From NCBI GenBank assembly GCA_011046135.1, contig DSBG01000136.1:9696-73695 (forward strand): 64,000 nucleotides of DNA, in the 5' to 3' direction. This DNA is from Deltaproteobacteria bacterium (GTDB lineage Bacteria > Desulfobacterota > Desulfomonilia > UBA1062). Shown here piece by piece: positions 55,628-64,000 of this stretch. A program made the translations under genes and the position numbers. The notes under the pieces were generated by a model, which did no database searches, was not told the origin of the DNA, and was given only the letters and a program-made list of their open reading frames with translations. Every line of letters begins with the position of its first letter. The first letter of the stretch is position 1.

Positions 55628-55739
55628 CCATTCTCAGAAGGGATGACGCTATCATGAAGGTGTTGGCTCGTACCAGAAGCTGCCCACGGAAAGAACGGGA
55701 GAACCTGTTGTTCCTCTGCTCTTCCCCTGAGTGTTCGCC

Positions 55740-56813
55740 ATGAAAACGCCTCTGTATGCAGAACACCAGAAGCTCAAGGCCCGCATCGTGGATTTTCATG
55801 GCTGGGACATGCCCGTGTGGTACTCCGGCATCAAGCAGGAACACCTGGCCACTCGTTCAGGAGCAGGACTCTTCGATGTGAGCCACATGGGAGAAATTCG
55901 AGTACAGGGTAAAGAGAGTGTCCCCTTTCTTGACCGTATTCTCACCCGTTCAATCCCGGACATACAGCAGGGAAAGGTACGCTATGGCTTCGCGCTCAAT
56001 GAAACAGGAGGAATCATCGATGACCTCACCATCTACTGTGTGCGTTCAGGGGTTGAATACCTGCTCTGCGTGAACGCATCAAACACCGCCGAGGTCTTCT
56101 CCTGGATGGAGCAGCACAACCGTGAGGGGGCGGAGCTTTCTGATATCAGCTCCGAGACTGCCCTGCTCGCCCTTCAGGGACCGCAGGCAGACACAATCCT
56201 CTCTCGGGTTCTTGAAATCGACAAGTGGGATCACCATCCCTTCACCTTTACCCGGTATGATTCCCGCGCGTTCGGGAAACTGATGGTTTCACAAACAGGA
56301 TACACCGGAGCTGGCGGCATCGAAATCTTCATGGATCCTCACTCCGTTGTCCCGCTGTGGAACGCGCTGATCTCTCTGGGCGCTGCTCCCTGCGGTCTCG
56401 GTGCCAGGGATACCCTCAGGCTCGAGATGGGCTATCCGCTCCATGGCAATGACATAGACAGCACCATCACCCCGTTTGAAGCCGGTCTCGGATTTGCCGT
56501 GGACATGAAAAAGGCGGATTTCCTGGGCAAAAACGCCCTGGAAACAGTCCTTTCCGGCGGACTCACGAGGAGGCTCACCGGTCTCGAGATGCTCGAAAAG
56601 GGGGTTCCCCGTCATGGGTGTCCATGCCTAAAAGACGATCAGCAGGTCGGATACGTCTCCTCGGGAAGCATCTCACCGATATTGGACATTGGAATCGCTC
56701 TGTGTTACCTTGAGAACTCCGTGCGCGAGGGAGAAGAGATTACGGTCTCTATCCGGGAGAGGCGGTGCCGGGCTCGGGTGAAAACCCCCCCGTTTGTTGC
56801 AGGAACAGTGTAA
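55740..56813 (+). CDS. gcvT: Glycine cleavage system aminomethyltransferase T
   Basis: KTPL..H, F.GW.MP, GLFDVSHMG, TGYTG, GLGARDTLRLE. Confidence 0.96.
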   Translation: MKTPLYAEHQKLKARIVDFHGWDMPVWYSGIKQEHLATRSGAGLFDVSHMGEIRVQGKESVPFLDRILTRSIPDIQQGKVRYGFALNETGGIIDDLTIYCVRSGVEYLLCVNASNTAEVFSWMEQHNREGAELSDISSETALLALQGPQADTILSRVLEIDKWDHHPFTFTRYDSRAFGKLMVSQTGYTGAGGIEIFMDPHSVVPLWNALISLGAAPCGLGARDTLRLEMGYPLHGNDIDSTITPFEAGLGFAVDMKKADFLGKNALETVLSGGLTRRLTGLEMLEKGVPRHGCPCLKDDQQVGYVSSGSISPILDIGIALCYLENSVREGEEITVSIRERRCRARVKTPPFVAGTV

Positions 56814-56847
56814 GATTTTATATTTCTGTAATCAGGTGAGGAGCCGT

Positions 56848-57237
56848 ATGGTTATACCAGAAGACCTTCTGTACACGAAAGATCACGAGTGGGGGAGAAG
56901 AGAAGACACCTCCCTGAGGGTGGGCATTTCAGACTATGCCCAGAGCGAACTTGGCGACATTGTCTTTGTCGAACTCGAAAAAATGGGAACCCGCGTCCGT
57001 CCCGGAGAAAAGATCGGCACCGTGGAGTCTGTCAAGGCGGTCTCGGAGATCTTTTCCCCCGTGAGTGGAGCCATCATTGAGGTGAACGACTCCCTGGAAC
57101 AGAGCCCTGAGATGATAAACACCGACTGCTACGGGGATGCATGGATGGTGCTCATCGCCATGGACGATCCCACTGAAACAGCCCATCTCATGGGTGCACA
57201 GGCCTACCGGGACTATCTCGAGGCAGAGGCAAAATGA
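56848..57237 (+). CDS. gcvH: Glycine cleavage system H protein
   Basis: YTKDHEW, GISDYAQ.ELGD, VESVKAVS (lipoyl Lys). Confidence 0.97.
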   Translation: MVIPEDLLYTKDHEWGRREDTSLRVGISDYAQSELGDIVFVELEKMGTRVRPGEKIGTVESVKAVSEIFSPVSGAIIEVNDSLEQSPEMINTDCYGDAWMVLIAMDDPTETAHLMGAQAYRDYLEAEAK

Positions 57238-58539
57238 ATGCCCTTTCTTGCGTTGAGTCCCCAGGAGCGTGAATCAATCCTCTCGTTCCTCGGTATCAGA
57301 TCCGAAGAGGAGCTCTTTTCCTGTATTCCGGAAGAGCTTCGGTATGCGGGATCGCTCTCCCTGGAGGGACCATACGATGAGCAGACGCTCCGCGCCCGTT
57401 TCCCCCTGCCCAGAGAAGCCGTCCTCTTCACCGGCGGAGGAGTCTACCGGCACTACGTTCCGGCTCTTGTGGATGCCGTTGCACACCGCCAGGAATTCGT
57501 CACCTCATACACCCCTTATCAGCCGGAGATCAGCCAGGGAACACTCCAGGCCATCTTCGAGTATCAGAGCATGATGGCCAGTCTCACCGGCATGGAGGCG
57601 GCAAACGCTTCCCTGTACGACGGCGCCACAGCACTGGCCGAGGCCGCGCTGATGTCCTTACGCATCAAGGGCGTCCGTCGCATTCTCATAAGTCGGGCGA
57701 CAAATCCAACCTACAGAGCTGTCGTGAGAACCTATCTCCAGCAGGTAGGTGACGTTGAGGTTCATGAAATCCCCTTTAACCCCGCCACGGGCAGCATGGA
57801 TATCTCTTCCCTGAAAAGCAGCCTGGGAAGCGATGCGGCCTTCTTCTTCCAGAATCCTAATTATTTCGGTGTAATAGAACCCATTGAGGAAATCTCAAGG
57901 ATGTCGACGGGATTCGCACTGTGGGGTGTTGTCATCAACGATGCTGTCTCGCTCGGAGTATTGAGCCCACCGGGCACGTACGGGAGCACCCTTGTCATCG
58001 GTGAAGCCCAGTCTTTCGGCAACCCTGTCTGCGGGGGTGGACCACTCCTGGGATTCTTCTGTACCACGAGGGACCATATCCGGAAAATGCCTGGCAGGAT
58101 CGTCGGGCTTACGCATGATCACAACGGAAAACAGGCGTTCTGCCTGACCCTTTCCACGCGCGAACAGCACATACGCAGGGAAAAGGCAACGTCCAACATC
58201 TGTACAAACCAGGGGTTGTGCGCCTTGAGAGCCGCCCTTTATCTGAGTGCCATGGGACCCATCGGTCTCAGGAAGGTCGCCAGCCAGTGCGCATCCGGTG
58301 CACGATACCTCAGAAAGCTGCTGTCTGCAAAAGGCATGGAGACCGTGTTCTCATGGCCTTTTTTCCACGAGTTCGTCGTCAGGATGGATGAAAAGACCTT
58401 TGAAAGGCTCGAGCAGGAGGGGATTGTTCCAGGCATCAGGATTGAATCGTTCTACCCCGAGATCTCTGACGGGGTGCTCGTAACCGTGACTGAAATGAAC
58501 ACGAAAGAGGACTGCAGATGCCTTTTGACGAGACTGTGA
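57238..58539 (+). CDS. gcvPA: Glycine dehydrogenase subunit 1
   Basis: YTPYQPEISQG.LQ..FEYQ, NASLYDG, PGRIVG, TREQHIRREKATSNICTNQ. Confidence 0.96.
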   Translation: MPFLALSPQERESILSFLGIRSEEELFSCIPEELRYAGSLSLEGPYDEQTLRARFPLPREAVLFTGGGVYRHYVPALVDAVAHRQEFVTSYTPYQPEISQGTLQAIFEYQSMMASLTGMEAANASLYDGATALAEAALMSLRIKGVRRILISRATNPTYRAVVRTYLQQVGDVEVHEIPFNPATGSMDISSLKSSLGSDAAFFFQNPNYFGVIEPIEEISRMSTGFALWGVVINDAVSLGVLSPPGTYGSTLVIGEAQSFGNPVCGGGPLLGFFCTTRDHIRKMPGRIVGLTHDHNGKQAFCLTLSTREQHIRREKATSNICTNQGLCALRAALYLSAMGPIGLRKVASQCASGARYLRKLLSAKGMETVFSWPFFHEFVVRMDEKTFERLEQEGIVPGIRIESFYPEISDGVLVTVTEMNTKEDCRCLLTRL

Positions 58540-60011
58540 GCACGTTTCCCGAACACAGGGAACCACTGCTCATAACGCTGAGTTCCCAGGGAAAAAACTC
58601 CCGGCTTGTGCCTGAACCCTTCGATGCCGGTGACCTCGATGATCTGAGACCTGCAGAACACCTTCCCGTTCTTCCGGACATCTCGGAAGTGGAGACGATC
58701 CGCCATTTCACCCGCCTCTCCCGCCTGAATTTCGGGATCGACCAGGGCATGTACCCCCTGGGGTCGTGCACCATGAAACACAACCCGAAGATCTCCGAGG
58801 AAATCCTTTCCAGATTTGCAGCCATTCATCCAGCGGATAGGCGCGCGATGCAGATCATCCTTTCGAGCATCCATACCCTGGCGGGATTTCTCCAGGAAAT
58901 CTGCGGCATGGATGCCTGTTCACTGTGGCCGGCAGCCGGCGCCCATGGAGAACTCACCGGGATGATGATCATCAAGAAGGCAGTCAAGGCAGTGGGACAG
59001 GACCGCACCACGGTGCTCGTTCCTGATACGGCACACGGGACAAACCCGGCTTCGTGCTCTATCGCCGGATTTATCACAAAAAACATCCCCTCGGGCCCGG
59101 AAGGATTCGTCACGGCCTCCCTTGTTCAGAAACATCTCGACGGAGATGTGGCCGCCCTCATGCTGACCAATCCCAACACCCTGGGCATCTTCGAACAGGA
59201 AATCTCACGGATAGCTACGATCCTGCACGAGAACGGATCGTACCTCTACATGGACGGCGCCAATCTCAATGCCATCATGGGAATCTCCAGACCGGGAGAC
59301 ATGGGAGTCGACTGCATGCACGTCAACCTGCACAAGACCTTCGGCGCTCCCCATGGGGGCGGTGGTCCCGGTGGCGGACCCGTACTGGTGAAGAAGACTC
59401 TGGAGAGGTTTCTCCCGGTTCCGAGGCTTGAAAGAGATTCCAGTGGGCTCTTCCACCTCTCCCTACACTATCCCGACAGCATCGGCATGGTACACAGCAC
59501 TCTGGGAAATGTCGGGGTTCTCATCAAGGCCCTCACCTACCTCCTGTCCGTGGGTCCCGATGGTATCAGAAAGGCGGCAGCAACGGCCTGCCTGAACGCG
59601 AATTATCTCAAGAAAAAACTCCGGGAAACCTTCGATTTACCCTACGATACGCCCACGCTGCACGAATTCGTCCTGAGCGACAGAAAACAGAAAGACGCCG
59701 GGATCACGACGATGGATATTGCAAAGATGCTTATGGATGCAGGGTTTCATCCACCCACCGTACACTTTCCCCTGGTGGTTCCCGGGGCCTTGATGATCGA
59801 ACCCACGGAGACCGAGCCGCTCAGGGAGCTTCAACGGTTTACCGATGCCATGGAGAGAATCGCAGAGATGTGTCGGAGCGGGCCGGGCTCGGTCCGGAAC
59901 AGGCCTCAGTCAACGCCGGTGACCCGGGTGGATGAGGTACACGCAGCGAGAAATCTCGTCCTGACATGGAAGGATGCTGAATCCATAGGGTCAGAGCAGG
60001 TATCTAAATGA
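58518..60011 (+). CDS. gcvPB: Glycine dehydrogenase subunit 2
   Basis: RHFTRLS, YPLGSCTMK, AGAHGE, HGTNPAS, NLHKTF (PLP Lys), PHGGGGPG, IEPTETE; start could be GTG 58536. Confidence 0.96.
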   Translation: MPFDETVSTFPEHREPLLITLSSQGKNSRLVPEPFDAGDLDDLRPAEHLPVLPDISEVETIRHFTRLSRLNFGIDQGMYPLGSCTMKHNPKISEEILSRFAAIHPADRRAMQIILSSIHTLAGFLQEICGMDACSLWPAAGAHGELTGMMIIKKAVKAVGQDRTTVLVPDTAHGTNPASCSIAGFITKNIPSGPEGFVTASLVQKHLDGDVAALMLTNPNTLGIFEQEISRIATILHENGSYLYMDGANLNAIMGISRPGDMGVDCMHVNLHKTFGAPHGGGGPGGGPVLVKKTLERFLPVPRLERDSSGLFHLSLHYPDSIGMVHSTLGNVGVLIKALTYLLSVGPDGIRKAAATACLNANYLKKKLRETFDLPYDTPTLHEFVLSDRKQKDAGITTMDIAKMLMDAGFHPPTVHFPLVVPGALMIEPTETEPLRELQRFTDAMERIAEMCRSGPGSVRNRPQSTPVTRVDEVHAARNLVLTWKDAESIGSEQVSK

Positions 60012-60610
60012 GCAAGGAAAATAAAGACCTCAGTGATGAAATCCTCGTGGGCAGGATAAAAAAAGGGGATAGGGATGCTCTGGAGGAGATTGTGAAACGG
60101 TATTCACAGAAGATCTACAATCTCGCCCTGCATGTCACGAGAGACGCAGCAGCCGCTGAAGAAATCATGCAGGAAGTTTTCCTCACCATCCTTTCCAAGA
60201 TCCACGCCCTGACTCACGATGCTTATTTCTCCACCTGGCTCTACCGGGTTGCCATGAATGCAGCGTATGGTTACCTGCGTAAGGAAAGGAAGTACACGGA
60301 GCAGACGGTTTCAGAAGATCTGGAGAACGAAACCGCTGCCGAGTACGACTGGTCATCCCTTTCCGACGATATCCTGGTTTCCGAGGAAAGCAAAGATATC
60401 CTGAGAACATCGATAGACTCACTGCCTGATACCATGAGAATGGTCGTCATTCTCAAAGACGTCGAAGGCTTCAAGAACGAGGAAATCTCCCAGGCGCTTG
60501 ATCTGAGCGTCCCGGCGGTAAAGTCACGGCTACACAGGGGGAGACTTATTCTACGCAGGGCCCTCGGCGATTACTTCAGGAGGTATTCGTATTCGGGGGC
60601 TGAAGAATGA
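60008..60610 (+). CDS. ECF RNA polymerase sigma factor
   Basis: Region 2 (AEEIMQEVF...FSTWLYRVAMN) and region 4 (LP...EG.KNEEIS..L..VKSRLHRGR). Confidence 0.93.
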   Translation: MSKENKDLSDEILVGRIKKGDRDALEEIVKRYSQKIYNLALHVTRDAAAAEEIMQEVFLTILSKIHALTHDAYFSTWLYRVAMNAAYGYLRKERKYTEQTVSEDLENETAAEYDWSSLSDDILVSEESKDILRTSIDSLPDTMRMVVILKDVEGFKNEEISQALDLSVPAVKSRLHRGRLILRRALGDYFRRYSYSGAEE

Positions 60611-60858
60611 ACTGTATGCTCTGCTCAAAACTTTTCCAGGAGTATCTCGATAACACCCTTTCCGAAGAACTCATCCATGAGCTGAACCTCCACATGGAAC
60701 ATTGCAGCAGGTGTCGCGTGTTCTTCAGAACCTACTCTCTGACGGTTACCCTCTCCAGAAAAGTCGAGCAACCCTGCTGTCCCAGTGAAGAAACGATGGA
60801 AAGGCTCACGGCACTGCTCTGTGACAAGCTCTGCTCACTTCACGGAAAACGCCCGTAG
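60607..60858 (+). CDS. Zinc-binding anti-sigma factor (zf-HC2/ZAS), soluble
   Basis: C..L..YLD..L...H...C..C motif (HMEHCSRC); overlaps the sigma stop; no TM. Confidence 0.85.
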   Translation: MNCMLCSKLFQEYLDNTLSEELIHELNLHMEHCSRCRVFFRTYSLTVTLSRKVEQPCCPSEETMERLTALLCDKLCSLHGKRP

Positions 60859-61124: not shown

Positions 61125-61153
61125 TTGATAAATGAATGTAGTGCTGGTAAGAT
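61125..61153 (+). promoter_or_regulatory. Candidate sigma70 promoter for the glycosyltransferase operon
   Basis: TTGATA-N17-TAAGAT with a TGn extended -10. Confidence 0.5.
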
Positions 61154-61232: not shown

Positions 61233-62528
61233 ATGTCGTTGGAGAGAAAAGTTCGATCGAGCAGCGGGATGGGGCGTACCCGTAAAGACACACGTGATCC
61301 CCTCAGCATCTGTCTGTTTACCTACCGAGGCAAACCGACCAGCGGCGGGCAAGGCGTCTACATCAGGAGACTCAGCACAGCGCTTCGAGATCTCGGTCAC
61401 CGTGTCGAGGTGGTTTCAGGACCTCCCTACCCCACTCTGGATGATGGCATCGCGCTCCACAAGTTGCCAAGCCTTGATCTGTACAATCCGGACGATCTCT
61501 TCAGGGTTCCACATATCAGGGAACTCAAAAATCCGATCAACCTCATGGAATGGCTGGGGGTATCGAGCGGCGGGTTCCCGGAACCTCTGACGTCGAGTAT
61601 TCGAGCCTTCAGATTCATGAAGGCGAACTTCCGCAAGTACGACATCCTCCACGACAACCAGTGTCTCGCCTACGGCATCCTCGGAATCAAGGCCCTTGGC
61701 CTGCCGACGGTGGCCACCATCCATCATCCCATTACTGTGGATCGCGATGTCGAGATTGATTCCGAAAGGGTCTTCTGGAGAAAATGGAAGGTCAGGAGAT
61801 GGTACTCGTTCCTTGGCATGCAGGGAAGAGTTTCCCGGAGGCTGTCACATATCATCACGGTTTCCGAAGCATCCAAGAAGGATATCAGCACTGCATTCTC
61901 CATACCACCGCACCGGTTCCGGGTGGTGGCGAATGGAATCAATACTGATATCTTTCACCCGATGCCGGACGTACCTCGGCGCGAAGACACCATCATGGTC
62001 ACCAACAGCGCGGACACTCCCCTGAAGGGACTCCGCTACCTCATCGAGGCTGTCTCGTCGATACGAAGACACCGCAACGTCACGCTCACGGTCATTGGTC
62101 AACCCAAGAAAGACGGCTTCATAGAAAAACTCGTCTATGACCTGAAAGCACACACATATGTCACCTTCACCGGCCGCATCGAAGATTCCGCCTTTGCCGA
62201 GTACTATGCCAGGGCCACATTGGCCGTCGTCCCCTCGATCTACGAAGGGTTCGGCCTGCCAGCGGGAGAGGCGATGGCATGCAGAGTCCCGGTCATCAGC
62301 ACCACTGGCGGAGCTCTTCCCGAGGTAGTTGGTGACGCCGGCGTCCTCGTTTCCCCCGGTAATGCACGCGCCCTTGAACAGGCCCTTGTTGACCTCCTGG
62401 ACAACCCCGATAAACGTGAGAGACTTGCCCTGGCAGGATATGAACGGGTGAAGAAGCATTTCACCTGGCACGCGACGGCACAAAGGGTTGTTGATGTGTA
62501 CAGGGAGGCAATCGATGCTCACGGTTGA
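61233..62528 (+). CDS. GT4 glycosyltransferase (ManT-like mannosyltransferase candidate)
   Basis: YRG.P..GGQGVY, VSGPPYP, LPSLDLY, GFPEPL, HDNQCL, TIHHPITVD, YEGFGLPAGEAMA (EX7E); start may be 61269. Confidence 0.92.
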   Translation: MSLERKVRSSSGMGRTRKDTRDPLSICLFTYRGKPTSGGQGVYIRRLSTALRDLGHRVEVVSGPPYPTLDDGIALHKLPSLDLYNPDDLFRVPHIRELKNPINLMEWLGVSSGGFPEPLTSSIRAFRFMKANFRKYDILHDNQCLAYGILGIKALGLPTVATIHHPITVDRDVEIDSERVFWRKWKVRRWYSFLGMQGRVSRRLSHIITVSEASKKDISTAFSIPPHRFRVVANGINTDIFHPMPDVPRREDTIMVTNSADTPLKGLRYLIEAVSSIRRHRNVTLTVIGQPKKDGFIEKLVYDLKAHTYVTFTGRIEDSAFAEYYARATLAVVPSIYEGFGLPAGEAMACRVPVISTTGGALPEVVGDAGVLVSPGNARALEQALVDLLDNPDKRERLALAGYERVKKHFTWHATAQRVVDVYREAIDAHG

Positions 62529-63240
62529 TTTTTCAAGGCTCGATCTGAAACCGGGAACACGGGTCCTGGACGCTGGATGCGGGGCAGGTCGGCACCTGAG
62601 TGAAGCCTTTCGATTCAAGGGCGTGGATGTCGTCGGCATCGATATGAGCCGGGATGATGCCCTGAAGGCACAAAATACCATCAAAATCATGCGGCACACC
62701 GGCGAGGATGGCGGAGGGAACGGCATGATCTTCGTGAGCGACATCACCTCGCTCCCCTTTCTCGATGAAACCTTTGATATCGTGATCTGCTCAGAGGTGC
62801 TTGAACACGTACCCGATCATGAGAAGGCCGCCCGGGAGATCTCCCGGGTTCTCAGAAAAGGGAGTTCCCTCGTGGTGAGTGTCCCCCGCTACCTGCCGGA
62901 ACGAATCTGCTGGGCGTTGTCGAAAGACTACCACTCGGAGGAAGGCGGACACATCAGGATCTACCGGAAGCGTCAGGTCATCGGGCTCCTGGAATCTGCC
63001 GGCTTCACCTGCCTGGAGATGGGATGGGCGCATTCACTGCACAGTCCGTACTGGTGGCTCAAGTGTCTGGTTGGCCACAAGAATGACGCTTCTCCCCTGG
63101 TGGCACTCTACCACCGCTTCCTTGTTTGGGACATCATGCAGAAGCCGCTGCTGACCCGTTTCCTCGACAGGATTCTCAATCCGCTCATTGCAAAAAGCAT
63201 CGTACTTTATCTGAAAAAAGGTGATCAATATGGAACGTGA
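62515..63240 (+). CDS. Class I SAM-dependent methyltransferase (MeT1-like)
   Basis: MLTVDF, LDAGCGAGRH, SEVLEH, PERICWALS..YH..GGHIRIY, AHSLHSPYWWLKC, YHRFLVWDIM; GGAGG RBS. Confidence 0.9.
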   Translation: MLTVDFSRLDLKPGTRVLDAGCGAGRHLSEAFRFKGVDVVGIDMSRDDALKAQNTIKIMRHTGEDGGGNGMIFVSDITSLPFLDETFDIVICSEVLEHVPDHEKAAREISRVLRKGSSLVVSVPRYLPERICWALSKDYHSEEGGHIRIYRKRQVIGLLESAGFTCLEMGWAHSLHSPYWWLKCLVGHKNDASPLVALYHRFLVWDIMQKPLLTRFLDRILNPLIAKSIVLYLKKGDQYGT

Positions 63241-64000
63241 TCTATCTGGCGGAAGGATTTCATCACCCCTTGACATAGATGAGCTTGCGGCATCCATTGC
63301 CTCGGTGCAGAGGGATTCCGGAGAAATTCCCTGGCACGAAGGGGGGAAAACCGATCCCTGGGATCATGTCGAGGCAGCCATCGGTCTGAGTATCGGTGGG
63401 TATTACGAGGAAGCCAGGCGTGCATTTGAATGGCTTGCCTCCACCCAGCTCGATGACGGTAGCTGGTATTCATCCTATCGCCAGGGCACTCCGGAAGACC
63501 TCACGAGAGAGAGCAACATGTCCTCGTACATTGCTGTGGGGATCTTTCACTACTACCTGATTACCCGGGACAAACATTTTCTCGAGTACATCTGGCCTAC
63601 GGTCAGTGAAGGAATCGACTTTACGGTAAACCTCCAGGCATCCGGAGGAGAAATCTACTGGGCAAGAAACCCTCACGGGATGATCGATCCCATGGCACTG
63701 CTCACCGGCTGCAGCTCCATCTATATGAGTCTCAAGTGTGCCCTTGTCCTGGCTCTTCTCCTGGGAGAAGCACGGCCACGATGGCAGGCGGCTCTTCAAA
63801 GGCTGGGTGAGGCCATCAGGTATCGCCCGCACCTCTTCAACAAGGAGAAATCCCGCTATTCCATGGACTGGTTCTATCCGGTGCTCTGCGGCGCGATTAC
63901 CGGTGCGGATGCAAAGAAACGCATGAACAAATACTGGAATACCTTCATGGTGGACGGGCTCGGGTGCCGGTGCGTATCGGACAATCCCTGGGTAACGATG
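63230..64000 (+). CDS. Prenyltransferase/squalene-oxidase-repeat (alpha/alpha barrel) protein, MmpH-like hydrolase candidate; 3'-truncated
   Basis: Not in the ORF track; ATG at 63230 overlaps the methyltransferase end and I saw no stop before the window end: MERDLS..QRDSGEIPW..DPWDHVEAA..QLDDGSW..YIAVG..LQ.SGGEIYW..SMDWFYPVL. Confidence 0.85.
   Translation, partial: MERDLSGGRISSPLDIDELAASIASVQRDSGEIPWHEGGKTDPWDHVEAAIGLSIGGYYEEARRAFEWLASTQLDDGSWYSSYRQGTPEDLTRESNMSSYIAVGIFHYYLITRDKHFLEYIWPTVSEGIDFTVNLQASGGEIYWARNPHGMIDPMALLTGCSSIYMSLKCALVLALLLGEARPRWQAALQRLGEAIRYRPHLFNKEKSRYSMDWFYPVLCGAITGADAKKRMNKYWNTFMVDGLGCRCVSDNPWVTM

Follow-up and report, generated by a model that had tools for sequence, protein, structure and literature searches.

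A six-gene cluster related to the mycobacterial methylmannose polysaccharide locus in Desulfobacterota

Methylmannose polysaccharide (MMP) is a linear, cytoplasmic chain of about 11–14 α-(1→4)-linked 3-O-methylmannose units with a 1-O-methyl group at the reducing end, and its proposed roles are fatty-acyl buffering and cold adaptation. Among its enzymes are, to our knowledge, the only α-(1→4)-mannosyltransferase described, together with an endomannosidase and a 1-O-methyltransferase (MeT1) that are each unique; the metal-binding and catalytic residues of MeT1 were reportedly described by Ripoll-Rozada et al. in 2019. In the literature, MMP is regarded as special to mycobacteria and a small number of other Actinobacteria. 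Here, we analysed a stretch of 64,000 nucleotides (nt; hereafter, the window) from a Deltaproteobacteria bacterium (Desulfomonilia), assembly GCA_011046135.1, contig DSBG01000136.1, positions 9,696–73,695 of the forward strand. The end of the window is likely to hold the first half of a six-gene cluster for making and recycling a cytoplasmic, MMP-like polymethylated α-mannan.

The MMP cluster manT–pmeT3–mmpH–meT1 corresponds to MHAS_04402–04405 in M. hassiacum and MSMEG_6481–6484 in M. smegmatis (Maranha et al. 2023, PMC9883506, portions of which were used here). According to its Methods, MHAS_04402 encodes ManT, MHAS_04403 pMeT3 (= MSMEG_6483), MHAS_04404 MmpH and MHAS_04405 MeT1. The survey described in those portions covered mycobacteria and related actinobacteria only. 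The same source refers to an acetylated methylmannose polysaccharide (AMMP) in Streptomyces griseus (Harris and Gray 1977, via PMC9883506). Our search of the full-text literature gave no link of methylmannose polysaccharides, MmpH or MeT1 to Desulfobacterota, deltaproteobacteria or other non-actinobacteria, the supplements of PMC9883506 and the 2019 MeT1 paper being outside the search. This agrees with an initial annotation of the window, which considered MMP to be described from actinobacteria only and proposed a ManT/MeT1/MmpH-like cluster with its own promoter in an apparent deltaproteobacterium.

The open reading frame (ORF) listing contains three overlapping, co-oriented genes at the end of the window, as had been claimed. 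The third gene is cut by the window edge, and the expectation that more cluster genes would follow was borne out. Positions past the edge were extrapolated from the read-on contig sequence (window = L002 + 61204). The cluster comprises the following genes:

61233–62528, + strand: manT homologue, retaining glycosyltransferase of family 4 (GT4), 431 amino acids (aa) (Pfam and PDB 7qsg)

62515–63240, + strand: pMeT3-like class I S-adenosylmethionine (SAM) methyltransferase, 241 aa (Pfam and Nonomuraea counterpart)

63230 (ATG) or 63221 (GTG) to 64000, + strand: mmpH homologue, predicted (α/α)6-barrel, cut by the window edge (PDB 7qsj)

64363–65085 (extrapolated), + strand: putative hexapeptide-repeat sugar O-acetyltransferase, 240 aa, TTG start (Pfam Hexapep)

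65106–66698 (extrapolated), + strand: putative B12-binding radical SAM enzyme, 530 aa (Pfam B12-binding and Radical_SAM)

66681–67340 (extrapolated), − strand: meT1 homologue, 219 aa, Methyltransf_24, convergent (PDB 6g7d)

The ATG of the methyltransferase gene (62515) lies 14 nt within the manT frame (stop TGA 62526–62528) and has GGGAGG upstream, while the mmpH ATG (63230) lies 11 nt within the methyltransferase frame (stop TGA 63238–63240) and has AAGGTG upstream. The complete mmpH gene encodes 378 aa from the GTG and ends at extrapolated position 64357 (G000:C2:72916–74052); a 375-aa form starting from the ATG at 63230 is present in the protein collection. The TTG start of the acetyltransferase gene is 5 nt past the mmpH stop, and both this gene and the radical SAM gene are located between mmpH and meT1. 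Thus manT, the methyltransferase gene, mmpH and meT1 are all found inside 6.1 kb (L002:29–6136).

As an actinobacterial reference, the locus of Nonomuraea gerenzanensis (NZ_LT559118.1, 4745–10804) was used, the sole actinobacterial record from a protein search of PLSDB. Its gene order is manT, methyltransferase, mmpH, a DUF1702 gene and meT1 on the minus strand, and the identities to the window proteins are 47% for ManT, 49% (across 236 aa) for the methyltransferase, 45% for MmpH and 52% for MeT1. The DUF1702 gene occupies the gap between mmpH and meT1, which is the site of the acetyltransferase and radical SAM genes in Desulfobacterota, and a GDP-mannose 4,6-dehydratase gene is found just upstream of the Nonomuraea manT. 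PLSDB lists NZ_LT559118.1 (11.85 Mb) as a plasmid; its size suggests a chromosome.

Based on Pfam, the GT4 protein contains Glycos_transf_1 (1.6e-32) and Glyco_transf_4 (3.1e-24) domains. Among all PDB sequences, it matched 7qsg with E 1.9e-102 across residues 24–427, the runner-up having 1.5e-25. Entry 7qsg, which bears a generic depositor name, was interpreted as M. hassiacum ManT, given that its numbering agrees with all the ManT residues named in the portions of PMC9883506 used. These residues were mapped by hand on the 7qsg alignment, where the chain number equals the paper number + 26. Nine of the ten are identical, namely G38, H164, K265, D318, E338, G339, F340, L342 and E346, corresponding to published G15, H142, K240, D293, E313, G314, F315, L317 and E321, respectively; the sole change, L291 to I316, is conservative. 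In the published description, Gly15 belongs to a loop, Leu291 and Asp293 contact the guanine, Glu313-Gly-Phe-x-Leu317 contacts the mannosyl moiety and Glu321 contacts the ribose (PMC9883506). On this sequence evidence, the window GT4 is probably a GDP-mannose-dependent α-(1→4)-mannosyltransferase. A GDP-mannose pyrophosphorylase-type domain was found elsewhere in the genome (E 1.7e-80), under the cut-off of the bifunctional family. The best match of this type (G000:C6:37106–38149) contains one in-frame TGA, which could reflect two genes, a frameshift or a recoded codon.

The third protein had no family in Pfam, and all three window proteins stayed below the cut-offs of the NCBIfam models. In the PDB, it matched 7qsj, "Methylmannose polysaccharide hydrolase (MmpH)", with E 1.9e-83 for the part inside the window and 8.9e-104 at full length; no other PDB entry matched at E ≤ 0.001. 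The MmpH residues named in the portions of PMC9883506 used were mapped by hand on the full-length 7qsj alignment (chain number = paper number + 1). Ten of the 11 are identical: D45, W47, D48, N99, T162, M215, Y219, E262, E265 and W315, which correspond to published D47, W49, D50, N101, T163, M215, Y219, E262, E265 and W315. The remaining one, F102, is conservatively replaced by M100. The published roles are a catalytic base (Glu262), candidate acids (Asp47/Asp50) and a subsite formed by Trp49, Asn101, Phe102, Thr163, Met215, Tyr219, Glu265 and Trp315 (PMC9883506). Since D47 and D50 map to D45 and D48, the acidic motif DPWDHVE highlighted in the initial annotation (residues 45–51) corresponds to the loop bearing both candidate catalytic acids, as they are named in that source; the acids are therefore conserved, as is Glu262. 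Most of the named residues are also invariant across 20 Desulfobacterota homologues. Judged by its sequence, the third protein is a homologue of the endo-α-(1→4)-mannosidase with a predicted (α/α)6-barrel fold. NCBI records name these MmpH homologues "phenyltransferase domain-containing protein", an annotation that is hereby corrected. The MmpH matches fall into 1594 representative clusters at E ≤ 0.001, 993 at E ≤ 1e-10 and 298 at E ≤ 1e-30, the nearest being mostly from Actinomycetota.

The window methyltransferase, which the initial annotation equated with MeT1, showed Methyltransf_23 (3.6e-24) together with Methyltransf_11, Methyltransf_31 and Methyltransf_25 domains in Pfam. Its 39 PDB matches at E ≤ 0.001 were all generic class I methyltransferases (best 3bus, 6.8e-14), and the MeT1 structures 6g7d, 6g80 and 6h40 were absent among them. 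The assignment as MeT1 was therefore rejected: no MeT1 structure matched, the family is Methyltransf_23/11 and not Methyltransf_24, and a separate MeT1 homologue is encoded downstream. Judged by its position in comparison with the Nonomuraea locus, the window protein appears as the counterpart of pMeT3, the product of the gene between manT and mmpH. The motifs MLTVDF, GGHIRIY and HSPYWWLKC, named in the annotation as features of MeT1, are all present; they led to the right cluster but to the wrong gene. G145, H146, R148, I149, Y150 and H176, as well as P178, W180, W181, K183 and C184, are invariant in 6/6 aligned orthologues, the actinobacterial one included, and the three motifs can be regarded as conserved in a predicted pMeT3-like family to which the Nonomuraea protein belongs. 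The enzyme is probably a mannose 3-O-methyltransferase.

The MeT1 counterpart, again by sequence match, is the product of the minus-strand gene 2.3 kb past the window edge. Its one PDB match is 6g7d, M. hassiacum MeT1 (E 5.1e-55, residues 11–203), and no other entry matched at E ≤ 0.01. Thus, of the proposed ManT/MeT1/MmpH set, ManT and MmpH stand, supported by 7qsg, 7qsj and the retained catalytic residues, and MeT1 moves outside the window. Overall, the observation made in the initial annotation is confirmed and its interpretation is partly supported.

The protein encoded directly after MmpH has a Pfam Hexapep match (2.7e-12) and is similar to galactoside and maltose O-acetyltransferases in the PDB (4e-21 to 2e-16). 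Its best NCBIfam models were WbbJ, maltose O-acetyltransferase and WcaF, all under cut-off; since all equivalog cut-offs were missed, the assignment is at the level of the superfamily.

The next protein contains an N-terminal B12-binding domain (7.8e-23) and a Radical_SAM domain (8.6e-26). The cluster motif CPNQCVFC (CxxxCxxC) is located at residue 194, and C194, C198 and C201 are invariant in 22 orthologues. The protein fell under every NCBIfam cut-off, the best being BchE with 213 bits against a cut-off of 481. The predicted structure had a mean local confidence (pLDDT) of 87.2 and a predicted template modelling score (pTM) of 0.87. A Foldseek search with this model returned TsrM, OxsB, AprD4, CysS, MgmA and TokK, all of class B, with near-equal scores (E 1e-19 to 1e-22, TM-score 0.56–0.67, identity 16–23%), and neither the sequence search nor Foldseek singled out one characterised enzyme. 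Sequence and model together indicate a class B, i.e., cobalamin-dependent, architecture with predicted cobalamin binding.

To assess the conservation of the cluster, a pattern scan was performed with one genome per GTDB species. At least 596 stretches were found, 592 of them were confirmed, and the best 80 were kept. These best 80 of at least 592 relatives were all of the Desulfobacterota type, with no mycobacterial locus among them: 74 records carry deltaproteobacterial or Desulfobacterota names (Desulfomonilia, Desulfobacterales, Syntrophales and others), four are "uncultured Bacteriovoracaceae", one is "Proteobacteria" and one "bacterium". Desulfobotulus alkaliphilus and Desulfoluna limicola, both cultured, are included. 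The closest locus belongs to a Desulfomonilia metagenome-assembled genome with 82–84% amino-acid identity, in agreement with the proposed deltaproteobacterial host.

The six proteins were then compared with the 80 loci and Nonomuraea by tblastn (E ≤ 1e-10, at least half of the query aligned). MmpH matched in 81/81 loci, the acetyltransferase in 72/81, the window methyltransferase in 40/81, ManT in 39/81 (one a 23% paralogue), the radical SAM enzyme in 38/81 (two being 25–27% paralogues) and MeT1 in 31/81. Among the nine loci without the acetyltransferase, three end at or just past mmpH and one is Nonomuraea. The six-gene order of the window is complete in 29/80 Desulfobacterota loci, with 53–84% identity.

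Many Desulfobacterales loci contain the mmpH–acetyltransferase pair alone. In the five genomes of this kind that were examined, meT1 (51–64%) and manT (55–60%) were found elsewhere in all five, and a radical SAM gene at 44–55% identity is present as well, solitary in the three loci fetched. The Desulfoluna and Desulfobotulus radical SAM orthologues stand alone without informative neighbours, and the core MMP genes are at separate loci. In 4/4 Desulfobacterales genomes fetched, manT is directly followed by the pMeT3-like methyltransferase gene. In two of them (L094 and L095; G004:C7 and G003:C3), meT1 converges on the manT–methyltransferase pair and the mmpH–acetyltransferase pair is elsewhere, which equals the window arrangement minus the block of mmpH, acetyltransferase and radical SAM genes. 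This separation suggests that the cluster was assembled from two-gene modules.

The distribution in the phylum was evaluated in an even sample of 401 Desulfobacterota genomes, including the window's own, with E ≤ 1e-30 for MmpH and MeT1. MmpH was found in 50/401 genomes (31/255 genera) and MeT1 in 49/401. Both occur in 47 genomes, MmpH only in three (93, 78 and 82% complete), MeT1 only in two and neither in 349. Of the 47 genomes that have both, 19 carry mmpH and meT1 on different contigs or more than 8 kb apart, and linkage alone therefore does not account for the co-occurrence. MmpH is present in 6/6 other genomes of the window's own family and in 0/7 of a sister family of the same class. 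The radical SAM matches are bimodal: 38 genomes have a match at E ≤ 1e-150 (at least 50% identity), all 38 have MmpH and/or MeT1, and 32 of the matches are no more than 5 kb from either gene. Another 28 genomes have weaker matches only (38–49% identity), and 23 of these lack the MMP genes. It is also worth mentioning two near-complete genomes (100% and 98%; G154:C42:3665–6456 and G204:C49:42115–52573) with MeT1 and the close radical SAM enzyme and no MmpH at E ≤ 1e-30, which may represent a version of the system lacking the recycling hydrolase or an assembly gap.

The analysis itself shows homology, conserved residues, a common gene order, joint occurrence in genomes, and neither signal peptides nor export genes. 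Based on these results, we suggest the following pathway, by analogy with the mycobacterial one. ManT would extend α-(1→4)-oligomannoside primers of at least three units using GDP-mannose. The pMeT3-like enzyme would O-methylate the newly added mannoses, putatively at 3-O, and MeT1 would place a 1-O-methyl group on the free reducing end. MmpH is proposed to cut the mature chains into oligomers that prime daughter chains; in mycobacteria, such priming of new MMP chains by MmpH products is called "partially conservative replication" (PMC9883506). Two further enzymes are peculiar to the Desulfobacterota version: the acetyltransferase probably acetylates free sugar hydroxyls, in the manner of the acetylated MMP of S. 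griseus, and the radical SAM enzyme probably modifies the polymer further. The most likely product, as judged from sequence and analogy, is a cytoplasmic, acetylated and further modified MMP-like methylmannan. We infer in this way the substrates, the linkage, the methylation position, the acetylation and any role in binding lipids or acyl-CoA.

For the radical SAM step, C-methylation, the commonest chemistry of class B radical SAM enzymes, would add hydrophobicity; an AprD4-like sugar dehydration is the other candidate. CysS methylates a methoxy group to give extensions of the O-ethyl and O-isopropyl type. Taking the two extra enzymes together, we tentatively put forward, as a possibility that is more doubtful than the MMP-like polymer itself, that Desulfobacterota make a hyper-modified relative of MMP, which the radical SAM enzyme C-methylates independently of oxygen and the adjacent transferase acetylates. 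The added methyl groups could convert O-methyl into O-ethyl or O-isopropyl groups, or be placed on acetyl esters or on a ring carbon. The chemistry proposed here is pure inference, whereas the phyletic distribution ties this clade of radical SAM enzymes strongly to the MMP genes. If true, fatty-acid-oxidising anaerobes would possess, in such a polymer, a helical host of greater hydrophobicity for fatty-acyl chains.

Several points weigh against the assignment to an MMP-like pathway. In Desulfobacterota, the polymer is a prediction from genes, and the presence of two extra enzymes means that the product may differ substantially from MMP. The identities of 45–52% to the Nonomuraea proteins leave the acceptor, the linkage and the methylation position unfixed. 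MeT1 was assigned by overall sequence match, and the window methyltransferase was compared with pMeT3 through the same-position Nonomuraea gene. Moreover, pMeT3 is a 3-O-methyltransferase by putative label, and its activity is undemonstrated even in mycobacteria according to the Discussion of PMC9883506. In 9/52 genomes with MmpH or MeT1, there is no radical SAM match at E ≤ 1e-90, and the radical SAM enzyme is therefore not obligatory. Finally, the sampled genomes are related and hence not independent, so the co-occurrence counts describe a pattern and overstate its support.

These enzymes might instead act on another glycan, with a different hexose or linkage, or on a methylated oligosaccharide carried by a lipid or a small-molecule aglycon. 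The modest identity to the Nonomuraea proteins, the altered cleft residue of MmpH (F102 to M100) and the two tailoring enzymes within a conserved cluster are in line with this, and the acceptor specificity of GT4 enzymes is unpredictable from sequence. Nevertheless, the MmpH and MeT1 families, both very unusual, occur together in 47 genomes and one without the other in five, and the sugar-subsite residues of MmpH and the mannosyl and guanine contacts of ManT are kept. Furthermore, a recycling endo-hydrolase and a reducing-end 1-O-methyltransferase fit only a free, linear, MMP-type oligomer, and we regard a different substrate as unlikely.

If the cluster made a glycan for export or for the cell surface (a methylated mannan O-antigen or an exopolysaccharide, for instance), there would be a precedent in the 3-O-methylmannose homopolymer O-antigen of Oligotropha carboxidovorans (PMC9883506, Introduction). 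The similarity of the acetyltransferase to WbbJ/WcaF-type polysaccharide acetyltransferases would also suit such a product, as would the extracytoplasmic function (ECF) sigma/anti-sigma pair upstream. Against this, no Wzx, Wzy or ABC exporter, flippase, polyprenyl-phosphate priming transferase or ligase was found among the annotated genes of the cluster and its flanks, and the six cluster proteins all lack a signal peptide and have N-termini that are neither hydrophobic nor membrane-spanning. Given the lack of signal peptides and of a glycan exporter near the cluster, a cytoplasmic product is the simplest reading. The ECF pair is kept together with the unrelated gcvP in close relatives only and is gone from distant full clusters. 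An exported product is thus very improbable.

The least credible explanation, an inactive relic of horizontal transfer from Actinobacteria, could account for the patchy distribution (50/401 genomes; 6/6 in the own family and 0/7 in the sister family), but the six frames are intact with overlapping start and stop codons, the catalytic residues of ManT and MmpH are kept, the cluster G+C (0.52–0.58) equals that of the flanks, which means that this is not a recent insertion, and the set is maintained at 53–84% identity with preserved order across many genera.

Upstream of manT, the following elements were considered in terms of regulation:

60008–60610: ECF sigma factor

60607–60858: zf-HC2 anti-sigma factor

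61125–61153, + strand: sigma70-like consensus match, TTGATA, 17-nt spacer, TAAGAT (9/12 positions)

The sigma70-like scan gave one site versus 0.5 ± 0.5 in shuffles of the region; the single 9/12 match is at chance level, and the manT block's own promoter, as claimed initially, was rejected. The ECF sigma and anti-sigma genes follow the gcvT, gcvH, gcvPA, gcvPB operon, with overlapping stop and start codons (window 55731–60858), and this arrangement upstream of manT is kept in close relatives only. A role of the pair as a dedicated regulator was also rejected: it travels with gcvP in these relatives and is missing beside distant full clusters. Downstream of the cluster, genes for a FapA-domain protein (474 aa) and an overlapping pentapeptide-repeat protein (237 aa) were found (L002:6287–8421, extrapolated 67491–69625); this pair is kept downstream of meT1 in most Desulfomonilia-type loci. 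TrkH/TrkA genes are also located downstream.

What is new, at the level of sequence, is a predicted MMP core with two conserved putative tailoring enzymes, found widely across a phylum of anaerobic Gram-negative bacteria. Many sulfate-reducing bacteria probably make a modified form of the "actinobacterial" methylmannose polymer. The gene set occurs in about one in eight of the sampled Desulfobacterota genomes, cultured strains being among the carriers, and this class of polymer probably has a far wider distribution and a greater age than assumed so far. Its proposed functions in fatty-acyl buffering and cold adaptation become testable in cells with a different envelope and an anaerobic, often fatty-acid-oxidising lifestyle. 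The cluster also points to undescribed tailoring chemistry on polymethylated polysaccharides, namely O-acetylation and a B12-radical SAM step.

In comparison with known systems, the radical SAM protein resembles the class B methylases TsrM, TokK, CysS and MgmA, as well as OxsB, in its N-terminal B12-binding Rossmann domain and radical SAM barrel, and the related sugar diol-dehydratase AprD4 shares the class B fold at a comparable Foldseek score; it differs from all of them in its low identity (16–23%), with no structural match standing out. The AMMP of S. griseus offers a likeness for the acetyltransferase, as an acetyl-bearing MMP is made there and a sugar-type O-acetyltransferase gene directly follows mmpH here in 72/81 loci, although the one actinobacterial locus read, that of Nonomuraea, has the DUF1702 gene and not a hexapeptide transferase gene after mmpH.

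Relative to the mycobacterial MMP cluster, the host is an anaerobic Gram-negative member of Desulfobacterota, where the system is known from genes; the O-acetyltransferase and B12-radical SAM genes are placed between mmpH and meT1, and Desulfobacterales split the set into manT–methyltransferase, mmpH–acetyltransferase, meT1 and radical SAM loci. At the same time, counterparts of the four gene families, that of pMeT3 being putative, stand in the same order, as in Nonomuraea, encoding soluble proteins with no export genes. The M. hassiacum structures are matched by ManT, MmpH and MeT1 with E values between 1e-55 and 1e-104, and the catalytic and sugar-binding residues named in the portions of PMC9883506 used are kept in ManT and MmpH.

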